Position numbers and translations under genes: made by a program. From NCBI GenBank assembly GCA_965229705.1, contig OZ245922.1:360001-392000 (forward strand): DNA of 32,000 nt. Reading direction: 5' to 3'. Shown in pieces: positions 1 to 23,588 of the stretch (the first letter of the stretch is position 1; every line of letters begins with the position of its first letter). The stretch is from Candidatus Saccharimonadota bacterium. GTDB taxonomy: Bacteria; Patescibacteriota; Gracilibacteria; BD1-5; UBA6164. The notes under the pieces were generated by a model. That model saw only the letters and a list, made by a program, of their open reading frames with translations. It searched no databases and was not told the DNA's origin.

Positions 1-1491
1 TCAGTGATTATCCAAACAGGTTGCGATAACTACTGTACATTTTGTATTGTTCCATACACGCGGTGAGGGGAAATATCTCGTCCAGAAGATGATATAATAA
101 ATGAGTGTCAAGATGCCGTCTCCAATGGAGCAAAAGAGATCACGCTTCTCGGGCAAAATGTCAATTCCTATGGGAAACAAAAAAATAGCAAACTTTGGAA
201 TAGTGAAAAATCGAGATGGAATACTGCTCAAAAAACTCTTAAAATAGGAGTCGATCTTGATGATACTCTCTTTGTTGTACTCAGTGAAGAAGTCATACAA
301 AGCTATAATGCCAAGTATCATAAGATTCTCGAGCTCGATGATGTGCGAACATTTAACTGCAATGGTATACCAGAGCTTATGCAGGAATATCACAACTATG
401 AACAGAGACACCGATGAGATATGTCTCTCCATGAGAATGGAAAAAAGGTATTGCAAAAATTATACGCTGCAGGACACAAAATATATGTGATCACCTCAAG
501 ACCAGCAAAAGAGAGAAAGACTACAGAAGCACTTTTGGAAAAATATTTTTGAAAATGATTTTTTTCTCAGATATGTTTTGTCAGTGAGCTTGGGCATGAT
601 AACAAGTATGAGATTGCCAATACTCTCCAGCTCGATGTGGTTATCGATGATGGACCACATCATATCCGTGCCTATCAAAAAAACTTTTCAGGAAAAATAT
701 GTATATTTACTCAACCATGGAACAAGACTATCTCAGAAGATGGGCAAAAAACCTATAGAGTCAACTGCTGGAATGAGTTTGCTGAAAGGATAGAGAGTTT
801 TCAGTTTTATTCGCCTTTTCGATCTCTCTTAGAAAAAATAGATACTCTACAAGGTCTTGATCGTATACGATTTACTTCCAGCAATCCACATGACATGACG
901 AGAGATATTTTGGATGCTCATAGTGAGCTCTCAAAAACCTGCAATTATCTCCACTTTGCTCTCCAGTCATGAAACAATAAAATGCTCAAAAAAATGAATA
1001 GGCGTCATAGTTATGAAGATTTTCGTGATATGGTAACGTATCTGCGAAAAAAAGATCCTCTCTTTTCTATTTCTACAGATATTATTGTATGATTTAGTGG
1101 AGAAACTGATGAAATGTTTGAGGATACTGTTCGCGCGTTTCGAGAGTGCATGTTTGACTTCTGTTATACAGCGAGGTACTCTGTGAGACCCAATACCCTT
1201 GCAGCAAAAGTTATGCCAGATAATGTTCCTGAGAGTGTCAAAGCTGAGAGGTGGCATATACTCAATGATCTTTTGTTAGAAAATATTTCTCAGAGAAACG
1301 AGCTCATGCTTGGAAGAGTAGAGAAAGTACTGATATCATGAAAAAAAGATGCCGTATTTTTTGGGAGAACACGTAACTTTAAAGAAGTTTTTTTCGAAGC
1401 TCCAGAGAGCTGTAATATCTGAGATTTGGTAGACATAAAAATAACCGATCGTGATAGATATGTACTCAAGGGAAAGTATACAAATACATAA
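1..1491 (+). CDS. miaB: tRNA methylthiotransferase MiaB (radical SAM), 5' end outside window, with a large in-frame insertion
   Basis: Frame +1 is open from base 1 to TAA 1489-1491 when TGA=Gly (8 in-frame TGA). Radical-SAM CDNYCTFC at 22-45. PYTR-G has its Gly encoded by TGA 64-66. Also [35 protein letters not shown] and a C-terminal TRAM-like segment (GRTRNFKEV...DIKITD). Confidence 0.85.
181..804 (+). other. HAD-superfamily (5'-nucleotidase/NT5C-like) domain nested in frame inside miaB
   Basis: About 200 extra residues lie between the MiaB motifs [11 protein letters not shown] and [12 protein letters not shown] motif I is IGVDLDDTL (from 241), motif II is VITSR, motif IV is VVIDDGPHH, followed by FTQPWN. 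No TAA/TAG occurs across either junction. Confidence 0.7.
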
Positions 1492-1857: not shown

Positions 1858-2753
1858 TGTAAGAAACTCTAGGGTTGTTTACACTTTTGGATAATCTGTA
1901 CAGCAGAATATTTTAGAAGTTAAACATAAAGGAAATGAATATACATAAACGAACAAGGCTCACTGAAATGCAAAGAAAAGATATATGGGAGAAATATAAA
2001 AATGGTACAAGGGTGAGTAGCCTCTCAGAAATATATCTCACTTCCCGAGTCACGATATACAAAGTACTTTCTCGAGCTCGCAGACAAGAATTTAGACCAA
2101 GAAATTCTACAAATCATAAATACAGAACTCTTGAATGGTGACTCAAAAGATTGTGAAAGATAGAAAGAAAGATAGTTGAGAAGAAAAATAGAGAGGCTCA
2201 GAGATACAATAAAACATATCCTGGAGAAATGCTTCATGTAGATACTAAAAGACTTCCTCCAATAGTTTGAGATGTAGATAAAACACCAGAATACTTATTT
2301 GTAGGAGTAGATGACTATAGCAGAGAGGCATATGTATCAATACACAAAGATAAGAGTCAGTATTCTTCATCTATGTTTCTCAAACAAATACTTGATGAAT
2401 GCCCCTATGTGATTGAGAAGGTATATTCAGATAACGGAAAAGAATACAAATGAAGTAGTGAACATGAATTTGTGAAAGTTTGCGAAGAGCATGGAATTAC
2501 TCAGGGATTCACACGAGTAAAAAGACCACAAACAAATGGTAAAGCTGAGAGATTTATACGAACTGTAATGGAGATGTGGCATAAAAAATACCAATTTACT
2601 ACCCGTAAAGAAAGGAGAATATCTTTAAAAAGATTTGTAAATTGGTATAATACGGTTAAGCCTCATAAAGGTATTGAAAACATGACACCTTATGAACTTA
2701 TTGAACAATTTTATTATCCTGAAAAAGTGTAAATAACGCTCTAAGATTTAACA
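1858..2753 (+). mobile_element. IS481-family insertion sequence (896 bp), apparently intact
   Basis: Termini are TGT...ACA. Imperfect terminal inverted repeats of about 31 bp: left TGTAAGAAACTCTAGGGTTGTTTACACTTTT versus the reverse complement of the right end TGTTAAATCTTAGAGCGTTATTTACACTTTT. Perfect 6-bp direct repeats flank the unit, and it carries a single DDE transposase ORF. Confidence 0.8.
1935..2732 (+). CDS. IS481-family DDE transposase (rve integrase core), 265 aa
   Basis: ATG 1935 to TAA 2730-2732, with 4 in-frame TGA read as Gly. N-terminal HTH-like region. Catalytic-triad contexts are HVDTK, YSDNGKEY and TNGKAER. Confidence 0.85.
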
Positions 2754-6433: not shown

Positions 6434-7045
6434 TTAGAGTCATAATGCATATACAAGATCACGGTGAACGGTATCAATATCTTGATCAGCGTTGATTTTT
6501 ATAAGTTTTCCTTCTTTCTCATACTCTTTGAGCAAAGGAAGAGCGAGGTCTATATATAACTGGATTCTTTTTTCTATCGCGCTTTCTTCATCATCACTGC
6601 GTTTTATGAGTGTTTCTTCAGAGTTTGGATCTCTCAGAGTTCCTTTAGGAAAAGTCTCTCCTGTTCTTGGATTGTACATGCGGCCGAGAAGTCTCTCTTT
6701 TGCTTTTTTTTCATTGAGTTCAAATACCACTACTGTATAGCCTCAGAGAGACATATCAGCGGTTTGCTTATTTCAAAGATTTCTGACGAATCCATCAAAT
6801 ATAGCATGTTCACGATCAAGCTTATTTTTGAGTATATCAAGCATGATTTCCTCTATTATTGAGGGAGAAACATGATTTCCCTCTTCAATAGTAGCTTTGA
6901 CACTTTGTCATAGCTGGCTATCCTCTATTGCAATATTCCTGAGTGCTACTCAAGACTCAAAAAGACGAAAATTATATCTCTGCTCCAAGAGTCGTGCTTG
7001 TGTTCATTTCCCTGATCACTGTATGCCTATAAAAACATAATTCAT
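6434..7045 (-). CDS. adk: adenylate kinase, 203 aa
   Basis: MNYVFIGIQGSGKGTQA P-loop, with two Gly encoded by TGA (rc of 7016-7018 and 7004-7006). Also DGFVRN and RSDDEE. The standard-code ORF ends at TGA 6440-6442; the true stop is TAA (rc of 6434-6436). Confidence 0.9.
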
Positions 7046-7167
7046 ATAACAAAACTCACAAAAAAAATAATCCCCCAAAGTATAGGGAATTATCTTCTTT
7101 TTCAAGAAAAACATTTATTCTTTCTGCCACTTTGTGATATTTTTTCAATCGAAAGGAAAAAATAAAT

Positions 7168-7506
7168 GTATTGAGAGTAATAAGCCGGATTCTGTACTTC
7201 GATATCAATCTATCTGGGACTCATATTGCTATGAGCCTCTAGCTGAGTATTCTGTTTCTAGCCAATAGAGAACAATGAGCTATCACAGAACCATTCCCAT
7301 TGCATCACCAGGGGTTTACCATCCTCTTCAAAGTTTGGAGAGGACCATCAAAATGGCGTTTCACATTACTCGTCTCTGCGGCACTTTCCGTATTTTGAGT
7401 TTATGTATTCTCCTCAAAACCAAAGCCGTTAGCTTTCTGGTTGTTCTCGTGATGTCCGGACTTTCCTCATCTCGTAAAACGAGACGTAGATATCTGCTCT
7501 CAATGA
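7168..7506 (-). ncRNA. rnpB: RNase P RNA (bacterial type A-like)
   Basis: On the minus strand: GAGGAAAGTCCGGAC (rc of 7454-7468) and ACAGAATCCGGCTTA (rc of 7181-7195). P1-like pairing between TTGAGAG near the 5' end (about 7497-7504) and CTCTCAA near the 3' end (about 7170-7178). Locally higher GC than the flanks. End coordinates are approximate. Confidence 0.85.
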
Positions 7507-7571: not shown

Positions 7572-9140
7572 TTACTTTTCGACAATAACCTTCTCAAACA
7601 TATTGAGTATTTTTTGGAGACATTTCCATTTACGATTCACTTGGTCAATAATCTGAAAATGTTCTATATCAATGAACCAATACTTCTTTTTAATATAGAG
7701 ATAATACTCCGACGGAGAAAATACAAAGTTCTCATCATCCAGCCTATGAGAAAGATAATAGTAAATAAGATCTGATATAAAAATAGGGAAGACAATATCC
7801 TCTTTTTTTTCAAATTGTGAATATATAGCACTAATATTTTCTACATCATGGAATCATACCTTTCCAAGAAATAGTTTATAAAAACTCCCTCCTGAAGAAA
7901 TATACTCACACATTCATGACAAACCCCGAAAATAGACTACATCCTTGTGCTGAACTCATATGTGATCAAAACTATAGTTTCGCTTTGCGCGAATAAGAGA
8001 CACCCTATAGTTCCTCTTGCACTGATACTCTTTTCCCATCACTCTCATAAACTCCTCCAGTTGGTCTCCAGATAAACACTCACCAGCCATGATAATAAAA
8101 AAATACTCTACAATATTATCAATATCTTCGTGAGAATGTCAGGAAAATATTTTCTCCATAAACATCGCAAGTCACTCTTCTTTTGGAAGATTTTTTGCTC
8201 CACGAAAATTTCATAAAAGTATTTTTCCATTATAAGAGTTAATATAGTGTGACTCTATCTCATGGGTAAGAAGCTTGAGAAGCCTTTCAAGAGAAAAAAC
8301 ACTGTGAGCATCATTGCGGGGAATTTCTAAAAAATGGTCTCCATCATAAATAGATCAAGCATTTGTGATTTTTGTTCTTTGAGGCAGATTATACAGCTCA
8401 CAAACACTATCAAATATCTTTCTATAGTCTTTTCTCTCTATAGGGGCTTTCATAAAAGATGCTTTCAAGGAAAAATTTTTCGTTTTTGGAGAGTCTTGCA
8501 CCGTAAAGTTTTTGTGAGACTGTATGACGTGCAAACACTCTCTCATAACCTTTTGATCACTCATAGAAAGTCTCTTCTTTTTTGTCTCGTGATTTCGAAT
8601 GACAAAGTTGTAACAATACGCAAACTCTTCAGGAATATCTGTTACCTTTGGACCAAAAAGTATTTCTTCTTTCTCTTCGATTTCACGAATTCTCTTAGGT
8701 ATTTGATTTTTCTTGAGTTTCAGGGGAACCCCAGCCTTTTCTAACTCAAAGGGGAGTCATAAAAGAGAAAGTTCCAAGACATGCTGTACATATACCAGAG
8801 CATCTCAGAGCATTCATCTTCGAAGAGAGGTATTTCGAGAATATACGGTTATTTTTTGAAGTTTTTTATTCACCCGCTCTATACACTTAATTTGAGTGCG
8901 TATTTTGTATTCATATGTCTTTCATAAAGTGTCTATATGAAAATCTCAAGATGACGCTCATACATATTCTTCAAATAAGGTTTCATTGAATAGGTTTGTA
9001 TCGTTAAATTCCCTATAACTATAGGTGACTTCTATAATCTTTTCAAGACTTCCATGAAAAATATACTTTTGACAAAGAGAAATAATATCTTCAAGACTCT
9101 TTGCAAAAAATAACTGTATATAAAATTTTATAGATCACAT
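7572..9140 (-). CDS. DUF1704 / QEGLA-motif family protein (putative metallo-carboxypeptidase-like), 522 aa
   Basis: 1569 nt open with TGA=Gly. HExxH-type THEIESH is followed about 25 residues later by EEGLAMF, matching the HE(I/V)GTH ... QEGLA pattern of this family. Stop is TAA (rc of 7572-7574). Confidence 0.6.
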
Positions 9141-9417
9141 ATTACTTTATTATCACAAAGAAAATAACACATATTATGAGAACTCCATACACAAAGAATA
9201 AGAGCTGATTATTTTTTAACATCTCTCAAAAAATAAAAAATATTTTTTTATAAAAATAGAGTAAACATTTATTGAAGCAATGCAAAAATATATATGTATA
9301 AAAAATATATACAATAAATAGTGTCAAATGTATTTTTCTCTTTGACCAGACACTCATTTTTTATATATTTCTTTTAAAGATTTTGTACTCCCTAAAACTG
9401 TTACTCTAAAAAAACCT

Positions 9418-10848
9418 ATGGAAAAACACTACCGATTAAAAAATATACTTTCGTCTCTTATCCAAGAACTCAAAAAACAAGACTTTCTCGTCTATTTTCG
9501 AAAGATTTCTATCCTCGAAGTCACTCATACAAAAGTTACTTTCTGAACGGTATCAAGCTTTATGAAAGATAATATTGAGGCAAAATTCCAAGATATTATG
9601 CTCTCAGCGACACAAGCAGAGTTTTGAGAAACGATAACAGAGATAGAGTTTGTTATAGATAACTCTATAGACAATCCTTCAAATATTGATGCCATTAGCT
9701 GACCTACATTTTATAAAGAAAATGAAAAAAGTGCAAAACAAGCAGAGAAAAAATCTCGCAGTAGCGTCACTGCTGGAGCAAAGGTTGCAGCCAGTGTTAA
9801 TGCTCGTTATTCTCTCACAAACTTTATCGTGGGCGCAGATAATCAGTTAGCGTTTTCTGCCTGTGAGGCAGTAGCTCGTAATCCAGGAAAATCTTATAAT
9901 CCTCTCTATATTTATGGTGATGTATGACTCGGAAAAACACACCTACTTCAAGCAACAGGGAACGAAATATTGAAAAAATCAAAAGATAAAAAAGTAGCCT
10001 ATACTACTGCTGATAAATTCATTACGGAATATGTTACCGCTGTAAAAAAGAGAAATGTAGAAAAAATGCGAGAAAAGTTTCGTGATATAGATGTGCTGGT
10101 TATAGATGACGTTCAATTTCTTTCACGAAAAGAACAAACACAAAACGAACTCTACAATATCTTTAATATATTGTATGATAGCAATAAGCAAATTATTATC
10201 TCAGGAGATAGAGCTCCAAAAGAACTTACAGAGCTTGAACCACGCCTTAGAAGTCGCTTTGAATGGGGAATAACAGTAGATGTAGGAAAACCTGATTTTG
10301 AAACTCGACTCGCAATTATTCAAGAAAAAGCCAGAGAAAAAGAATTTATGATTCCTCACGAGGTGGCAGAGTTTATTGCAGCAAACGTGACAGAAAATGT
10401 TCGTGAACTTGAAGGAGTGCTCAATCAAATGATTGCAGAATACGAACTCACGGGAAACACTCCAAGTCTCACGCGTATAGCACAAAAACTTCAAAAACTC
10501 AGCTTTACCAAAGATTTACTCTGAGAGTCAAAAACAGCAGAAAAGAGAACCACCACAACCATCAGAAGTTATGAAGATATTATTGATGCAGTAAGCGCGC
10601 ATTTTGGGATTGAAAAAGAGGGAATACTCTGAGAAAATAGAAAAAAAGAGTTTATGATTCCTCGCCAAGTCGGAATGTATCTTCTCAAAACAAAGATGAA
10701 TTATACTTATGAACGCATCGGAAATATCTTTAATGGAAGAAATCATGCCTCAGTACTCTATAGTTGCAACAAGCTTGATAAACTCCTCAAAAAAGACAAA
10801 ACACTTCTCTACGAGGTAAATGCAATCAAAGATGTGATAGGGATATAA
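9418..10848 (+). CDS. dnaA: chromosomal replication initiator DnaA, 476 aa
   Basis: ATG 9418 to TAA 10846-10848. FIVGADNQLA; Walker A GDVGLGKTHLL (first Gly of GLGKT is TGA); Walker B VLVIDDVQFL; sensor RLRSRFEWGI; C-terminal DNA-binding PRQVGMYLLK...NHASVLYSCNK. Confidence 0.95.
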
Positions 10849-15320: not shown

Positions 15321-15647
15321 ATGGATGATAAAGAATTTCAAACTCAAGTACTTTGAGAACTAAAGTCTATTAAAACAGATGTATGAGAACTTAAGGCAGA
15401 TGTTTCAGGACTTAAAACAGACGTATGAGAACTTAAGGCAGATGTTTCGGGACTTAAAACGGATGTATCTTCACTGAAAAGCGAAACAAAAGGTCTTCAT
15501 CAGAAGTTTGATAGACTTGATGATCGGCTCGACAGTGTAGAATCAAATCTTTCTCAAGAAATACGCCTCCAATGATCCTATCTCAGTCAAGCTTTTGATA
15601 GAATGACCTACATAGAACAAGGACAAAATCAGTTCTCCAAAAGATAG
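15321..15647 (+). CDS. small coiled-coil repeat protein, 108 aa
   Basis: ATG 15321 to TAG 15645-15647, with 4 in-frame TGA. Heptad-like 14-aa units TDVGELKADVSGLK are repeated. A terminator hairpin follows. Confidence 0.5.
15375..15458 (+). repeat. 42-bp tandem repeat x2 (plus degenerate flanking copies) inside the coiled-coil ORF
   Basis: 15375-15416 and 15417-15458 differ at 2 positions (ACAGATGTATGAGAACTTAAGGCAGATGTTTCAGGACTTAAA). The TGA codon is conserved in each unit. Confidence 0.8.
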
Positions 15648-20719: not shown

Positions 20720-20740
20720 ACAAAGATTTTTACACAAAAA

Positions 20741-20768
20741 AAATATTCCTTAGTAGTAGGGAATATTT
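20741..20768. terminator. bidirectional terminator between convergent pilT and the repeat-protein gene
   Basis: AAATATTCC / GGAATATTT stem with a 10-nt loop, an A-run upstream and a T-run downstream. Confidence 0.55.
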
Positions 20769-20792
20769 TTTTGTAACAAAGAATAAAGTAAA

Positions 20793-23462
20793 CTACATAG
20801 CAACTAAGACTCTTCATCGTTCATCTTTTCTGATTTGCAGTTTTAGTTTTAAATGTTCTTCAGCCATATTAGTAAAAATTCAAGACCCCCAGCTTTTGCG
20901 AAGTAACTGTTCAATAACTGGGTGTATATTTCTCCCTAAATTCTGTAAAAAAAGATTAAATCCTTCTGAATCAGGAGTATAGATAACCCACTCTTTTTGT
21001 TGCTGAGTTTTTGAGGAAGTGGGTACAGAAGGTTTTTTTGATGGACTTTGAAAAGTAGGAGTATTTGGCTTAGTTGTAGTAGAAATATCATGAGAAGAAG
21101 GTTTCGTTGATTGAGGAATTTTAGTTTCCTTTGTACTTGGCGTGGATTTGACTGTTGTTGAGGAATCTTTTTTTAGTTGTAAAGAATTATGTGAATCTGG
21201 TGATAGTGTCTTTTTCTTTGCTTGACTTGAAGCAGAGGGTGTAACTCAATTTTTTATAGATTTTTGTGGGGGAGTGGTACTAGATATGGTTTTCTTAGGT
21301 AATCTACCTTCTACTTTTTTTGCCAACATTGCATTTCAAACTTCTTCACCTAATAAATCAATGATACCTTCTTGGATACTATTATAGTTTCTAAGAATAT
21401 AACCCATAGAGTTTTTACCCTGTGATCTCTTCTCAAGAGTGTTTCTATTCCAAAATTGATTTCCTCACAAAGACACAGCAAAATCTTCTAAAAATCTTGT
21501 ATATCTTTCTCTTACTTGGGTATTCTTTGGTTTAAACTTTAACCATAAAGATTGGCCAGCCTCTTCACCTAATAAATCAATAATTCCTTGTTCGATATTA
21601 CCATAATTTTTAATAACGTAACCCATAAAATTTTTACCCTGTGGCTTCGATCTAAGAGTAACAGCACTCCAAACTTCACCCTCATTTAAAGATGCAGCAA
21701 AATCTTCTAAAAATCTTGTGTACTTCTCTCTTACTTGGATAGTTTTTCATTTAAATCTTGACCATAAAACTTGCCCCTTTTTCTCTCCCAATAAGTCAAT
21801 AACTCCTTCTTTTATACTACCAAAATTTCTAAAAATATAAAACACAAAACTCTGACCATGTGGTCTCATTTCAAGAGTGTTTCTATTCCAAAATTGATTT
21901 CCTCACAAAGACACAGCAAAATCTTCTAAAAACTTTGTATATCTTTCTCTTACTTGTATATTCTTCGGTTTAAATTTTAACCATAAAATTTTACCTTTTT
22001 CTTCTCATAACAAGTCAATTATGATCAATCTTAATCGCTGATTTACTGTAACTCATCACTTTCTCTTCACATTATCTCCTACATAACTGAAAAAAGTTTT
22101 TCATTTATCAGTAGCTGAAAGATTACCAGTATGCCAAAGTTCATCCTCTCACAATGATGCAGCAAATTCTTCTAAAAACTCTATATGCCTTTCTCTTACT
22201 TGCTCCTTTTCCGGTTTAAACTTTGACCATAAAATTTTACCTTTTTCCTCTCATAATAAGTCAATTATGATCAACCTTAATTGCTGATTTACTATAATTC
22301 ATCACTTTCTCTTCGTATTATCTCGCACATACTTCAAAAAAGCTTTTCCTCCATTAATAGTTAAAAAACTAGTAATACTCCAAAGCTCATTCTCTCATAG
22401 AGATGCAGCAAATTCTTCTAAAAACCTTATATGTTTTTCTTTTACTTGGATCCTTTCTGGTCTAAACCTTGACCACAAAGCTTGACCAGCTTCTTTACCT
22501 AGTAGGTCAATAATAGCGACTCGTAATCCTTCACTTGGAGTACTATTCTTCTCTCTTTTTCATTTTTCTTTAGCATATCAATAAAAAGATTCTCCCCCCG
22601 GGAATAGCTGGAGCTTCTTAATATTCCAAACTTCACCCTCATTTAAAGATACAGCAAAATCTTGTAAGAGCTTTGTGTATTTCTCTGTAATCTCGGTACT
22701 TTGTGACCTAAATTTTATCCAGAGAGATTGACCTTTTTCTTCACCTAAAAGCCTTTTGATAACAACTTCTAAGCCCCCATTTCTAGAAGCAAAATCACAA
22801 AAAAGCCTTCCTCATGAGCACTCCCTAAGCTTACTAATATTCCAAGTCTTCCATTTTTTCACAAGTTTAGTAAAATTTTCTAAAAAACTTTTATGTCTTT
22901 GAGGAGCTCCTTTATTACTTGGTCTTGCTTTTGCTTTTTTACACCATAATGCTTGTGCTTCTTTTTCTCCAAGTAGTTCGATAATAGCACTCTTCAAATC
23001 AATAGATGCACCTTGTCTTATCTTTTGTGCTATATTCTTATAAAAAGCATAACCTATTGGCGTAGCCCGAAGATCTTCTGTATTCCAATAAGTCCCCTCA
23101 GGAATTGAAGAGGAAAATAACCTAAAAAAAACTTTATAAAGTCTCTGTGTCTCTTCTTCTTGAGAAGTTTGAGACCCAGACAAAATAAGATGCACTTTGT
23201 TACTCGTAGTAGCAACACTTGCCTCCCATAAACCTTTTGCCGTTGGCAGCTCTGCATTAAGATGGCGAAGTAATGCAGTATCTTCTAACACTAGAGTCTT
23301 CTCAAATACCTGCTGACTTGTTGAACGTACAACCTCTAAGATTTTTGATAGCCCAGGCCCCTCTGATAAGAGTACTGCCAATTCTGGTTGAGACTGAATT
23401 GCTTCATGTAAACCTTCCATTATAGCTGAGTTGATATTCCTTTCTTGCCTTTTGAGTCCCAT
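20793..23462 (-). CDS. large tandem-repeat protein of unknown function, 889 aa
   Basis: 2670 nt open with TGA=Gly, from ATG (rc of 23460-23462) to TAG (rc of 20793-20795). At least 7 consecutive 73-82-aa modules have the consensus IIDLLGEEKGQxLWxKFKPxxxQVRERYTxFLEDFAxSLGExxxW...G..F..Y. A Ser/Thr/Pro/Lys-rich linker and a short C-terminal domain follow. No signal peptide seen. Confidence 0.75.
21330..22990 (-). repeat. in-frame coding tandem repeats (periods about 219-246 bp)
   Basis: The IDLLGE-encoding segment recurs. Near-identical blocks include 21434-21549 vs 21872-21987 (offset 438) and about 21967-22079 vs 22213-22325 (offset 246). Confidence 0.8.
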
Positions 23463-23588
23463 TTTTTTTTGTAAAATTCTATATATTATACTATATAATA
23501 TATGTATGTAATTATATTTTGTAAAGTTTTTTAGAAAGAATTTTTTACAAGTAACTTCTCCATTCTATATTTTCTATATAATATTCTT

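Follow-up and report, generated by a model that had tools for sequence, protein, structure and literature searches.

An 889-residue protein of predicted alpha-helical tandem modules encoded in a code-25 Gracilibacteria chromosome

The gene at positions 20793-23462 (minus strand) of a 32,000-nucleotide (nt) stretch of contig OZ245922.1, from a Candidatus Saccharimonadota bacterium placed by GTDB in the Gracilibacteria, encodes an 889-amino-acid (aa) protein that consists for the most part of eight tandem modules of 73-82 aa each. The whole stretch is called the window below. As judged by Pfam, NCBIfam, PHROGs, PADLOC and PDB-sequence profiles and by Foldseek comparisons with PDB and BFVD, the analysis supports the view that the module represents an unrecognised alpha-helical repeat family. 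The chromosome is of the Gracilibacteria type and uses genetic code 25, and the repeat gene is intact and under selection. The family extends beyond this genome, with distant relatives in metagenome-assembled genomes (MAGs) of Peregrinibacteria and the Candidate Phyla Radiation (CPR), and is rare, at about 15 clusters in 1.8 billion proteins. Tentatively, and with somewhat less than even confidence, we read the protein as a fast-evolving modular binding scaffold or adaptor.

Results

An intact gene read with UGA as glycine

A fundamental question is whether the gene can be read through at all. Under translation table 11 its frame is open for the first 216 aa only (22812..23462), as an earlier note on this DNA had pointed out, and the window as a whole falls into short, broken open reading frames (ORFs). 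When TGA is treated as a sense codon, long and identifiable genes appear instead; those identified in the window are dnaA, groES/EL, thrS, pilT, murD, purB, ispH, adk and RNase P RNA. The repeat gene then starts with an ATG at 23462, ends with a TAG at 20793-20795 and contains 889 sense codons, 19 of them in-frame TGA, in agreement with the 889-aa product that the earlier note had proposed on the premise that UGA encodes glycine.

That UGA is decoded as Gly and not as Trp is confirmed by three independent lines of evidence. When the window's GroEL is aligned with solved GroEL, UGA codons fall on Gly at 12 of 14 positions, on Lys at 2 and on Trp at none. Within the repeat, the glycine column of LL-G-EE is encoded by UGA in two units and by GGN in the other six, and the glycine column of SL-G-E/G is UGA in four units (aa 356, 438, 520 and 666), which is the recurrence at a fixed repeat position that had been noticed earlier. 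Strain polymorphism supplies the third line: codon 861 is TGA in the window and GGA in the corresponding contig of a sister strain. UGA accounts for 28% of the Gly codons in the repeat gene and 38% of those in the other genes of the window. The expectation that default annotation would miss the protein entirely does not hold, since a public copy exists (P0001; NCBI/ENA, on a 1,006,762-bp contig). It was, however, translated in the wrong code, with UGA as Trp (code 4), and carries 19 Trp-for-Gly errors, several of them at conserved repeat positions.

A tandem array of eight modules

Phasing the modules from LW-KFKP to IIDLLGEE-GQ- resolves the protein into a 96-aa N-terminal region, the eight modules (M0 to M7), a basic linker of 109 aa and a C-terminal domain of 69 aa. 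The parts are as follows, all on the minus strand.

20793..23462: complete coding sequence, 889 aa plus TAG stop, genetic code 25, 19 in-frame UGA read as Gly
23175..23462: N-terminal region, aa 1-96; not a module; no homologue detected
22950..23174: module M0, aa 97-171; degenerate, lacking the LW-KFKP leader; 33.5 bits with the M2-M7 profile; matched by a profile of relatives only
22725..22949: module M1, aa 172-246; degenerate and very basic, net charge +12; 28.5 bits with the M2-M7 profile
22479..22724: module M2, aa 247-328; 82 aa
22233..22478: module M3, aa 329-410; 82 aa; KRKGG-xxVNQ insertion
21987..22232: module M4, aa 411-492; 82 aa; 68% identity to M3
21768..21986: module M5, aa 493-565; 73 aa; 74% identity to M7
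21549..21767: module M6, aa 566-638; 73 aa; modelled jointly with M7
21330..21548: module M7, aa 639-711; 73 aa; last module, ordinary, without a special capping variant, running into the linker
21003..21329: basic linker rich in Ser, Lys, Thr and Pro, aa 712-820; net charge +15, isoelectric point (pI) 10.4; presumably disordered
20796..21002: C-terminal domain, aa 821-889; an orphan, neither a module nor akin to the C-terminal domain of the relatives

At the DNA level 7-8 copies are detected, spaced 219, 219, 246, 246, 246 and 216 nt apart and 66-86% identical to one another, and at the protein level pairwise identity among modules spans 23-74%, with M3/M4 and M5/M7 as the youngest pairs. A profile constructed from M2-M7 only recovers M0 and M1 independently, M0 aligning without its leader from profile position 8 onward, which bears out the earlier remark that the modules become more degenerate towards the N-terminus; the core motif given there likewise agrees with the computed consensus. 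The same profile finds no match in aa 1-96 or aa 712-889. The short C-terminal domain had been described as an echo of the repeat, and this we reject, given that its 69 aa produce no module score and an hhalign probability below 1%. The Ser/Thr/Pro/Lys-rich linker, predicted at about 110 aa, is present at nearly that length; its 109 residues include 22 Ser, 19 Lys, 18 Thr and 13 Pro, with SPSK and S/T-S/T-K motifs. The whole protein has a pI of 9.7 and a net charge of +42. No hydrophobic N-terminus or transmembrane segment was detected (the maximum 19-residue Kyte-Doolittle score is 1.03), in keeping with the earlier failure to see a signal peptide, and the protein is thus predicted to be soluble and very basic, with neither signal peptide nor membrane segment.

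A predicted five-helix module without a recognised counterpart

Comparison with known families gave consistently negative results. Searches of Pfam with the full protein, a single module, the N-terminal part and the C-terminal part returned nothing above threshold; 47 modules scanned singly against Pfam at E <= 10 revealed no recurrent family; NCBIfam, PHROGs and PADLOC gave no match above threshold; and a module profile run against all PDB sequences came back empty. Below threshold, Pfam came closest with MerR_2 (24.3 bits, cut-off 29), and HTH_74 appeared in 3 of the 47 modules. For TPR, Sel1, HEAT/ARM, ankyrin, LRR, Myb/SANT, annexin, SAM, HA and HNH_repeat, no Pfam match lay at or near the gathering score.

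The structure of the module was predicted with AlphaFold2 from 38 aligned two-module windows, of which the target protein contributed 7 (the M6-M7 query among them) and the distant relatives described below 31. The resulting M6-M7 model has a mean predicted local distance difference test score (pLDDT) of 93.6, a predicted template-modelling score (pTM) of 0.69 and five helices per module. In this model a long helix A (QVRERYTxFLEDFAxSL) leads to an invariant Trp, which immediately precedes a short helix B and a helix C (G..F..Y...N), after which a tight pair of helices D and E joined by Gly (IIDLLGEE.GQ.LW) passes through the short KFKP junction into the next module. Single-residue bridges are predicted at two places, the conserved Trp and the Phe of the junction (in KFKP in the target and in RNPFE in the relatives), an arrangement that would fit a Trp-Phe contact. 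Foldseek found no neighbour of the two-module model in PDB (best E 1.7, template-modelling score (TM) 0.31) or in BFVD (best E 2.6). Both the structure prediction and the Pfam scans therefore sit well with the earlier judgement that the unit does not resemble TPR, Sel1, HEAT, ankyrin, LRR or Myb repeats.

How, then, does the family compare with established helical scaffolds? With ARM/HEAT, TPR/Sel1, ankyrin, PUF, PPR, TALE and annexin proteins it shares tandem helical modules, a conserved hydrophobic framework and variable surface positions, as well as a copy number that differs between relatives; those scaffolds commonly serve as binding platforms. It differs in having a unit about twice as long (73-88 aa, five helices), in lacking any sequence or structural match to them and in showing no sign of a code of one module to one ligand. 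The spacing helix - G.W/P - ... G..Y.WI..N ... LG resembles that of HA (PF03457) and of HNH_repeat (PF18780), although neither was detected. These repeats, too, are helical and arranged in tandem; they measure about 55-75 aa, frequently belong to orphan proteins, and begin with an amphipathic helix, which is followed by an aromatic/Gly turn and an LG helix at the C-terminal end. The target differs in that neither family is matched in any of the 47 modules at E <= 10 and in that it has no associated helicase or HNH domain.

Distant multi-module relatives

An exhaustive HMMER search with the module profile against 1.84 billion representatives returned 15 matches at E <= 1e-3, of which 13 are multi-module proteins, one is junk and one is a near-identical C-terminal fragment from the sister strain (P0015). 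The 13 relatives are 426-1064 aa long, contain 3-8 matched stretches each (best E 1.4e-12) and are about 25-29% identical to the target. In the reciprocal direction, a profile from 47 modules of the relatives only matches seven target modules in register (8-21 bits each, positions ~9-82), and hhalign of 59 modules of the relatives against the target's eight gives a probability of 97.2% (E 4.7e-11, 66 columns, 29% identity). One relative, P0019, is annotated as 'hypothetical protein JW758_02370 [Candidatus Peregrinibacteria bacterium]' (GCA_016932505.1); the others (P0002-P0008, P0010-P0014 and P0016-P0018 among them) come from unannotated contigs of public assemblies, and the contig of another relative bears genes typical of the CPR. 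Searches of Pfam, NCBIfam and PHROGs with the relatives yielded no annotation. A full-length model of one relative (pLDDT 80, pTM 0.43) has no Foldseek neighbour in PDB.

The relatives have in common an N-terminal domain of about 95 aa, a leaderless first module that starts at profile position 11-22, 3-10 modules, a special module that caps the array, a linker that is basic and disordered, and a C-terminal domain of three helices. Their consensus module of 84 aa reads L.RNPFe....i....A..YL.eFL.sLpeGe.WSp.tL..W...DG..G..lY.WI.rN....f.e..ir..LG..A..l. The target shares with them a homologous module of about 80 aa with the same invariant Trp, G...Y/N and LG positions, a leaderless first module (M0), and an overall plan in which an N-terminal region of about 95 aa precedes the array and a basic linker connects the array to a C-terminal domain that is small and helical. 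The differences are equally clear. At the junction the relatives have RNPFE where the target has (L)W-KFKP; their modules measure 79-90 aa against 73-82 aa; they are mostly acidic (pI 5.3-7.1), whereas the target has a pI of 9.7; and they use the standard genetic code, whereas the target uses code 25. Moreover, neither their conserved four-helix N-terminal domain (IPD..E.DF ... LC.RI ... EKY ... VRL) nor their capping module (G.IDWLYVL..M.P.E.L..HPF.HR) is detectable in the target, where M7 is an ordinary module. Homology of the terminal regions was rejected by hhalign, which gave a probability of 0.3% for target aa 1-110 against the relatives' N-terminal alignment and about 0.1% for the target tail against their C-terminal domain (DPE.LL..KE ... 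RF..GEDV). A likeness of that C-terminal domain to sigma-70 region 4 was also considered and rejected, as neither Pfam nor Foldseek supports it.

Other searches returned little. A word-indexed protein search with the full protein found only the protein itself, and with the 47-module alignment found nothing, probably owing to the limit of the word index. Scans with back-translated patterns of target modules detected nothing in GTDB species genomes, JGI metagenomes or IMG/VR, nor did the C-terminal 250 aa match anything in JGI metagenomes, and three 12-residue matches obtained in IMG/VR with the relatives' modules proved spurious by hidden Markov model. The genes of the relatives have no conserved upstream or downstream partner, their neighbours being mutually unrelated. 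One relative (L093:1949-6201) adjoins tyrosine and serine recombinases, a MerR/excisionase-like helix-turn-helix (HTH) gene and an HsdM methylase (type I), and another (L004:8694-15270) adjoins RelB/YafQ, an Imm5-like gene and an HTH-SocA/Panacea gene; such recombinase- and defence-type neighbours hint that the family travels in variable genome regions. A further relative lies in a core region, at most 2 kb from a pilT-like gene and near pilB and ftsZ.

Selection on the modules and divergence in a sister strain

Comparison of paralogous modules separates a constrained framework from a variable segment. Across framework columns, the ratio of nonsynonymous to synonymous substitution rates (dN/dS) is 0.13-0.33 at a synonymous divergence (dS) of 0.5-2.4, while in the segment after the invariant Trp it ranges over 0.3-2.3, the value of 2.3 belonging to the youngest pair, M3/M4. 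Entropy by column follows the same division, with low values in helices A, D and E and high values beyond the invariant Trp. The framework helices are thus under purifying selection and the middle segment is near-neutral to diversifying. Taken together, the selection pattern and the entropy argue in favour of a translated, selected protein that joins a conserved scaffold to a rapidly changing face, and against an assembly artefact or a decaying ORF.

A contig of the sister strain (L002; ENA ERZ25074195) covers part of the locus. Its ThrRS, orf128 and PilT are 98-100% identical to those of the window, with dN/dS of about 0.08-0.09, and the last 220 aa of the target are 95% identical, with dN/dS of about 0.69. 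Upstream of the shared last module, no module of the window is more than 62% identical to the module stretch of the sister strain. The region L002:1-1138 contains a copy of about 33 aa of the linker start between two modules and is frameshifted by 1 nt, and the contig breaks off within the array. The piece of linker inside the array suggests unequal recombination, and the difference between the arrays would reflect either real module shuffling and duplication or assembly error at low coverage. Between the repeat gene and pilT, the sister strain also has an extra ORF of 255 aa (L002:1298-2065) that is not in the window, has internal TAEKIEAIG-like repeats and has no PADLOC match. The interval that separates pilT from the amidase gene seems to be a hotspot of strain-specific repeat genes.

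Locus and other features of the window

The closest PilT proteins among GTDB species genomes belong to Candidatus Gracilibacteria MAGs, at 58-60% identity. In two of these loci (L010 and L011, ~7035-7130) the order is ThrRS, PilT, amidase (Amidase_2) and MurD, with a gap of about 94 nt between pilT and the amidase gene and no repeat module anywhere. The 2.7-kb target gene occupies exactly this gap, convergent with pilT, and is the sole difference from the order in the relatives, so that it is lineage-specific at the site, by gain here or loss elsewhere. Because the adjacency of pilT and the amidase gene is ancestral and the target gene was inserted into it, the pilT neighbourhood is no evidence of function, and the conserved synteny undermines a functional link to pilT. 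The window has no second module-bearing gene, and its identifiable ORFs are mostly housekeeping. Two further candidates were rejected, namely a component of a defence system (no PADLOC match) and an origin in a diversity-generating retroelement or phage (no reverse transcriptase or phage genes among the scanned ORFs). Two putative regulatory elements flank the gene:

23485..23525 (minus): two overlapping sigma-70-like promoters, TTTACA-17-TATATT and ATTACA-16-TATAAT, with -10 hexamers that end 23-35 nt before the ATG; matches to the consensus only, and in AT-rich DNA
20737..20772 (no strand): inverted repeat with 16-nt arms (94% complementary), a 4-nt loop and A-run and T-run flanks

The hairpin at 20737..20772 resembles a bidirectional terminator, placed where pilT and the target gene converge. 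A 37-nt imperfect direct repeat (20763-20799 and 23461-23497; 73% identity; ATATTTTTTTGTAA... and ATTTTTTTTTGTAA...) almost exactly brackets the gene and could be the trace of an insertion or a product of chance in AT-rich DNA.

Elsewhere in the window, a bacterial class A RNase P RNA lies at 7165-7505 (minus; 159 bits, Rfam RF00010), and tRNA genes are absent from the whole 32 kb. The dnaA gene at 9328-10848 (plus; Bac_DnaA, DnaA_C, DnaA_N) indicates that the window is probably near the replication origin. An IS-type transposase/integrase (rve, rve_3) at 1935-2732 (plus) stands in an otherwise housekeeping region. An ORF of 108 aa at 15321-15647 (plus) consists of 14-aa tandem repeats (DVGELKADVSGLKT) and matches the Lpp leucine-zipper model; its copy in the sister strain is 86-92% identical and aligns in two pieces, and this ORF may also be variable in repeat number. 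A protein of 522 aa at 7572-9140 (minus) has a domain like MATCAP/DUF1704-type metallopeptidases (29 bits against a Pfam cut-off of 27). Finally, the ORF at 379-1491 (plus) combines the N-terminal part of an NT5C-like nucleotidase with the C-terminal half of a radical-SAM/TRAM (MiaB-like) enzyme and may be a fusion, a truncated gene or the result of a wrong start.

Discussion

What might such a protein do? In the scaffold or adaptor model that we tentatively prefer, helices A, D and E, the invariant Trp and the junction would form a conserved backbone that strings the modules into one continuous array, and the fast-evolving segment of each module, from helix B through the loop to helix C, would be its exposed variable face. 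The protein would then act as a multivalent binding scaffold or adaptor whose specificity shifts quickly between strains, and its gene would be an accessory and not a housekeeping gene. In this member, a net charge of +42 and a tail rich in Ser, Thr, Pro and Lys are weak hints of a polyanionic partner, for instance nucleic acid.

Several observations weigh against this model. No functional homologue supports the proposed activity, and because the N- and C-terminal regions of the target are unrelated to those of the relatives, function is not transferable from them. The basic charge is not conserved, and since most relatives are acidic, nucleic-acid binding cannot be a trait of the family. The putative variable face is placed by sequence position and not by a surface map, and the dN/dS values come from 37-48 codons per comparison, between paralogues. 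With a pTM of 0.69 for two modules and of 0.43 for the full-length relative, the array may be either rigid or flexible. Moreover, the strain difference may partly be assembly error, given that the sister-strain contig has 2.8x coverage, ends in the array and is frameshifted.

An alternative hypothesis is that the protein is an effector or adhesion factor directed at a host or prey cell, exported by a non-Sec route such as the type IV pilus-like machinery widespread among these episymbionts, with variable modules that bind host-cell targets. Orphan proteins that are rich in repeats, evolve fast and lack Sec signals are typical of effectors, a description that fits the target, and binding to host targets would explain the rapid diversification of a lineage-specific and strain-variable gene. 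The target gene adjoins pilT, and one relative has a pilT-like gene less than 2 kb away and pilB nearby, but the ancestral adjacency of pilT and the amidase gene, with the target gene inserted convergent with pilT, means that this neighbourhood says little, and the loci of other relatives are without pilus genes. Gracilibacteria have been inferred to depend on hosts and to express type IV pili (PMC11452946), a lifestyle that makes this hypothesis plausible; the target, however, has no signal peptide, anchor or known secretion motif, and we regard an effector as unlikely, if worth keeping in view. An intracellular role is considered in a further hypothesis, in which basic modules and an H1-like S/T-P-K tail coat or read DNA or RNA, either as a nucleoid-associated protein or through TALE/PPR/PUF-like contacts of individual modules. 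A net charge of +42 with a pI of 9.7, a linker of +15 with SPSK and S/T-S/T-K motifs, the absence of an export signal and the weak, sub-threshold matches to MerR_2 and HTH_74 are all compatible with this, as is the tight helix-Gly-helix pair of the model, a shape often used for backbone contacts. Yet the charge is not conserved among relatives, no HTH or helix-hairpin-helix (HhH) family reaches threshold in any of the 47 modules, Foldseek against PDB and BFVD gives no structural match to DNA- or RNA-binding repeats, and nucleoid proteins are usually conserved and not strain-variable, for which reasons nucleic-acid binding as the core function seems improbable to us.

It could also be that the novelty is only apparent and that the module is a highly diverged form of a known helical domain, the candidates being HA, homing-endonuclease-associated repeat, SAM, annexin-type five-helix and (HhH)2 domains. 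Small helical domains are difficult for HMMER and Foldseek alike, and the spacing of HA and HNH_repeat is similar, albeit with neither detected. Nevertheless, hmmscan of the 47 modules at E <= 10 never gave HA, HNH_repeat, SAM or annexin, the profile search of PDB returned nothing, and Foldseek with a model of pLDDT 93.6 reached a best TM of 0.31, all of which makes a hidden known domain a poor prospect. Lastly, the array might be mis-assembled, or it might be an expansion without function whose frame remains open merely because UGA has ceased to be a stop codon. Repeat arrays are prone to assembly error, and the assembly of the sister strain does break in the array and is frameshifted. Collapse or expansion of identical repeats, which the earlier note had named as grounds for doubting the array, is judged unlikely because the units are only 66-86% identical in DNA, with dS of 0.5-2 between them. 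The contig measures 1.0 Mb, a frame of 889 codons free of TAA and TAG could not have arisen by chance in DNA of 33% G+C, framework codons are under purifying selection, and homologous module arrays occur in unrelated genomes that use the standard code. An artefact or decaying sequence is thereby largely refuted, and we consider it very improbable.

A bolder extension of the scaffold model would see in the module a new alpha-helical fold confined to the Gracilibacteria/Peregrinibacteria branch of the CPR, and in the protein a rapidly re-programmable recognition array that combines a conserved framework of five helices with a hypervariable helix B-C face and, through the gain, loss and shuffling of modules between strains, serves these host-dependent bacteria to recognise host, prey or phage molecules. 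This proposal is speculative and in our estimate doubtful; if true, the array would be a bacterial analogue of the variable repeat receptors of the ankyrin, TALE or VLR type. Helical repeat scaffolds as a kind are already known, and the novelty here lies in a long-unit repeat family, with distant relatives in a sister lineage of the CPR, and not in the kind of system.

Should the predicted fold prove right, the family would add a new long-unit tandem-repeat architecture, of about 80 aa and five helices, to the helical repeat proteins. A module that is confidently modelled and has no solved relative is well suited to structure determination and perhaps to the engineering of repeat proteins. The gene also illustrates how errors of genetic code propagate in annotation, with 19 Trp-for-Gly substitutions in the public copy and a product cut to 216 aa under code 11. 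The immediate impact is modest because the family is rare and its function is inferred only. For the biology of the CPR, a lineage whose host interactions are almost entirely unknown, this strain-variable accessory protein is a candidate interaction determinant and could offer a handle on how interaction surfaces diversify in such reduced genomes.

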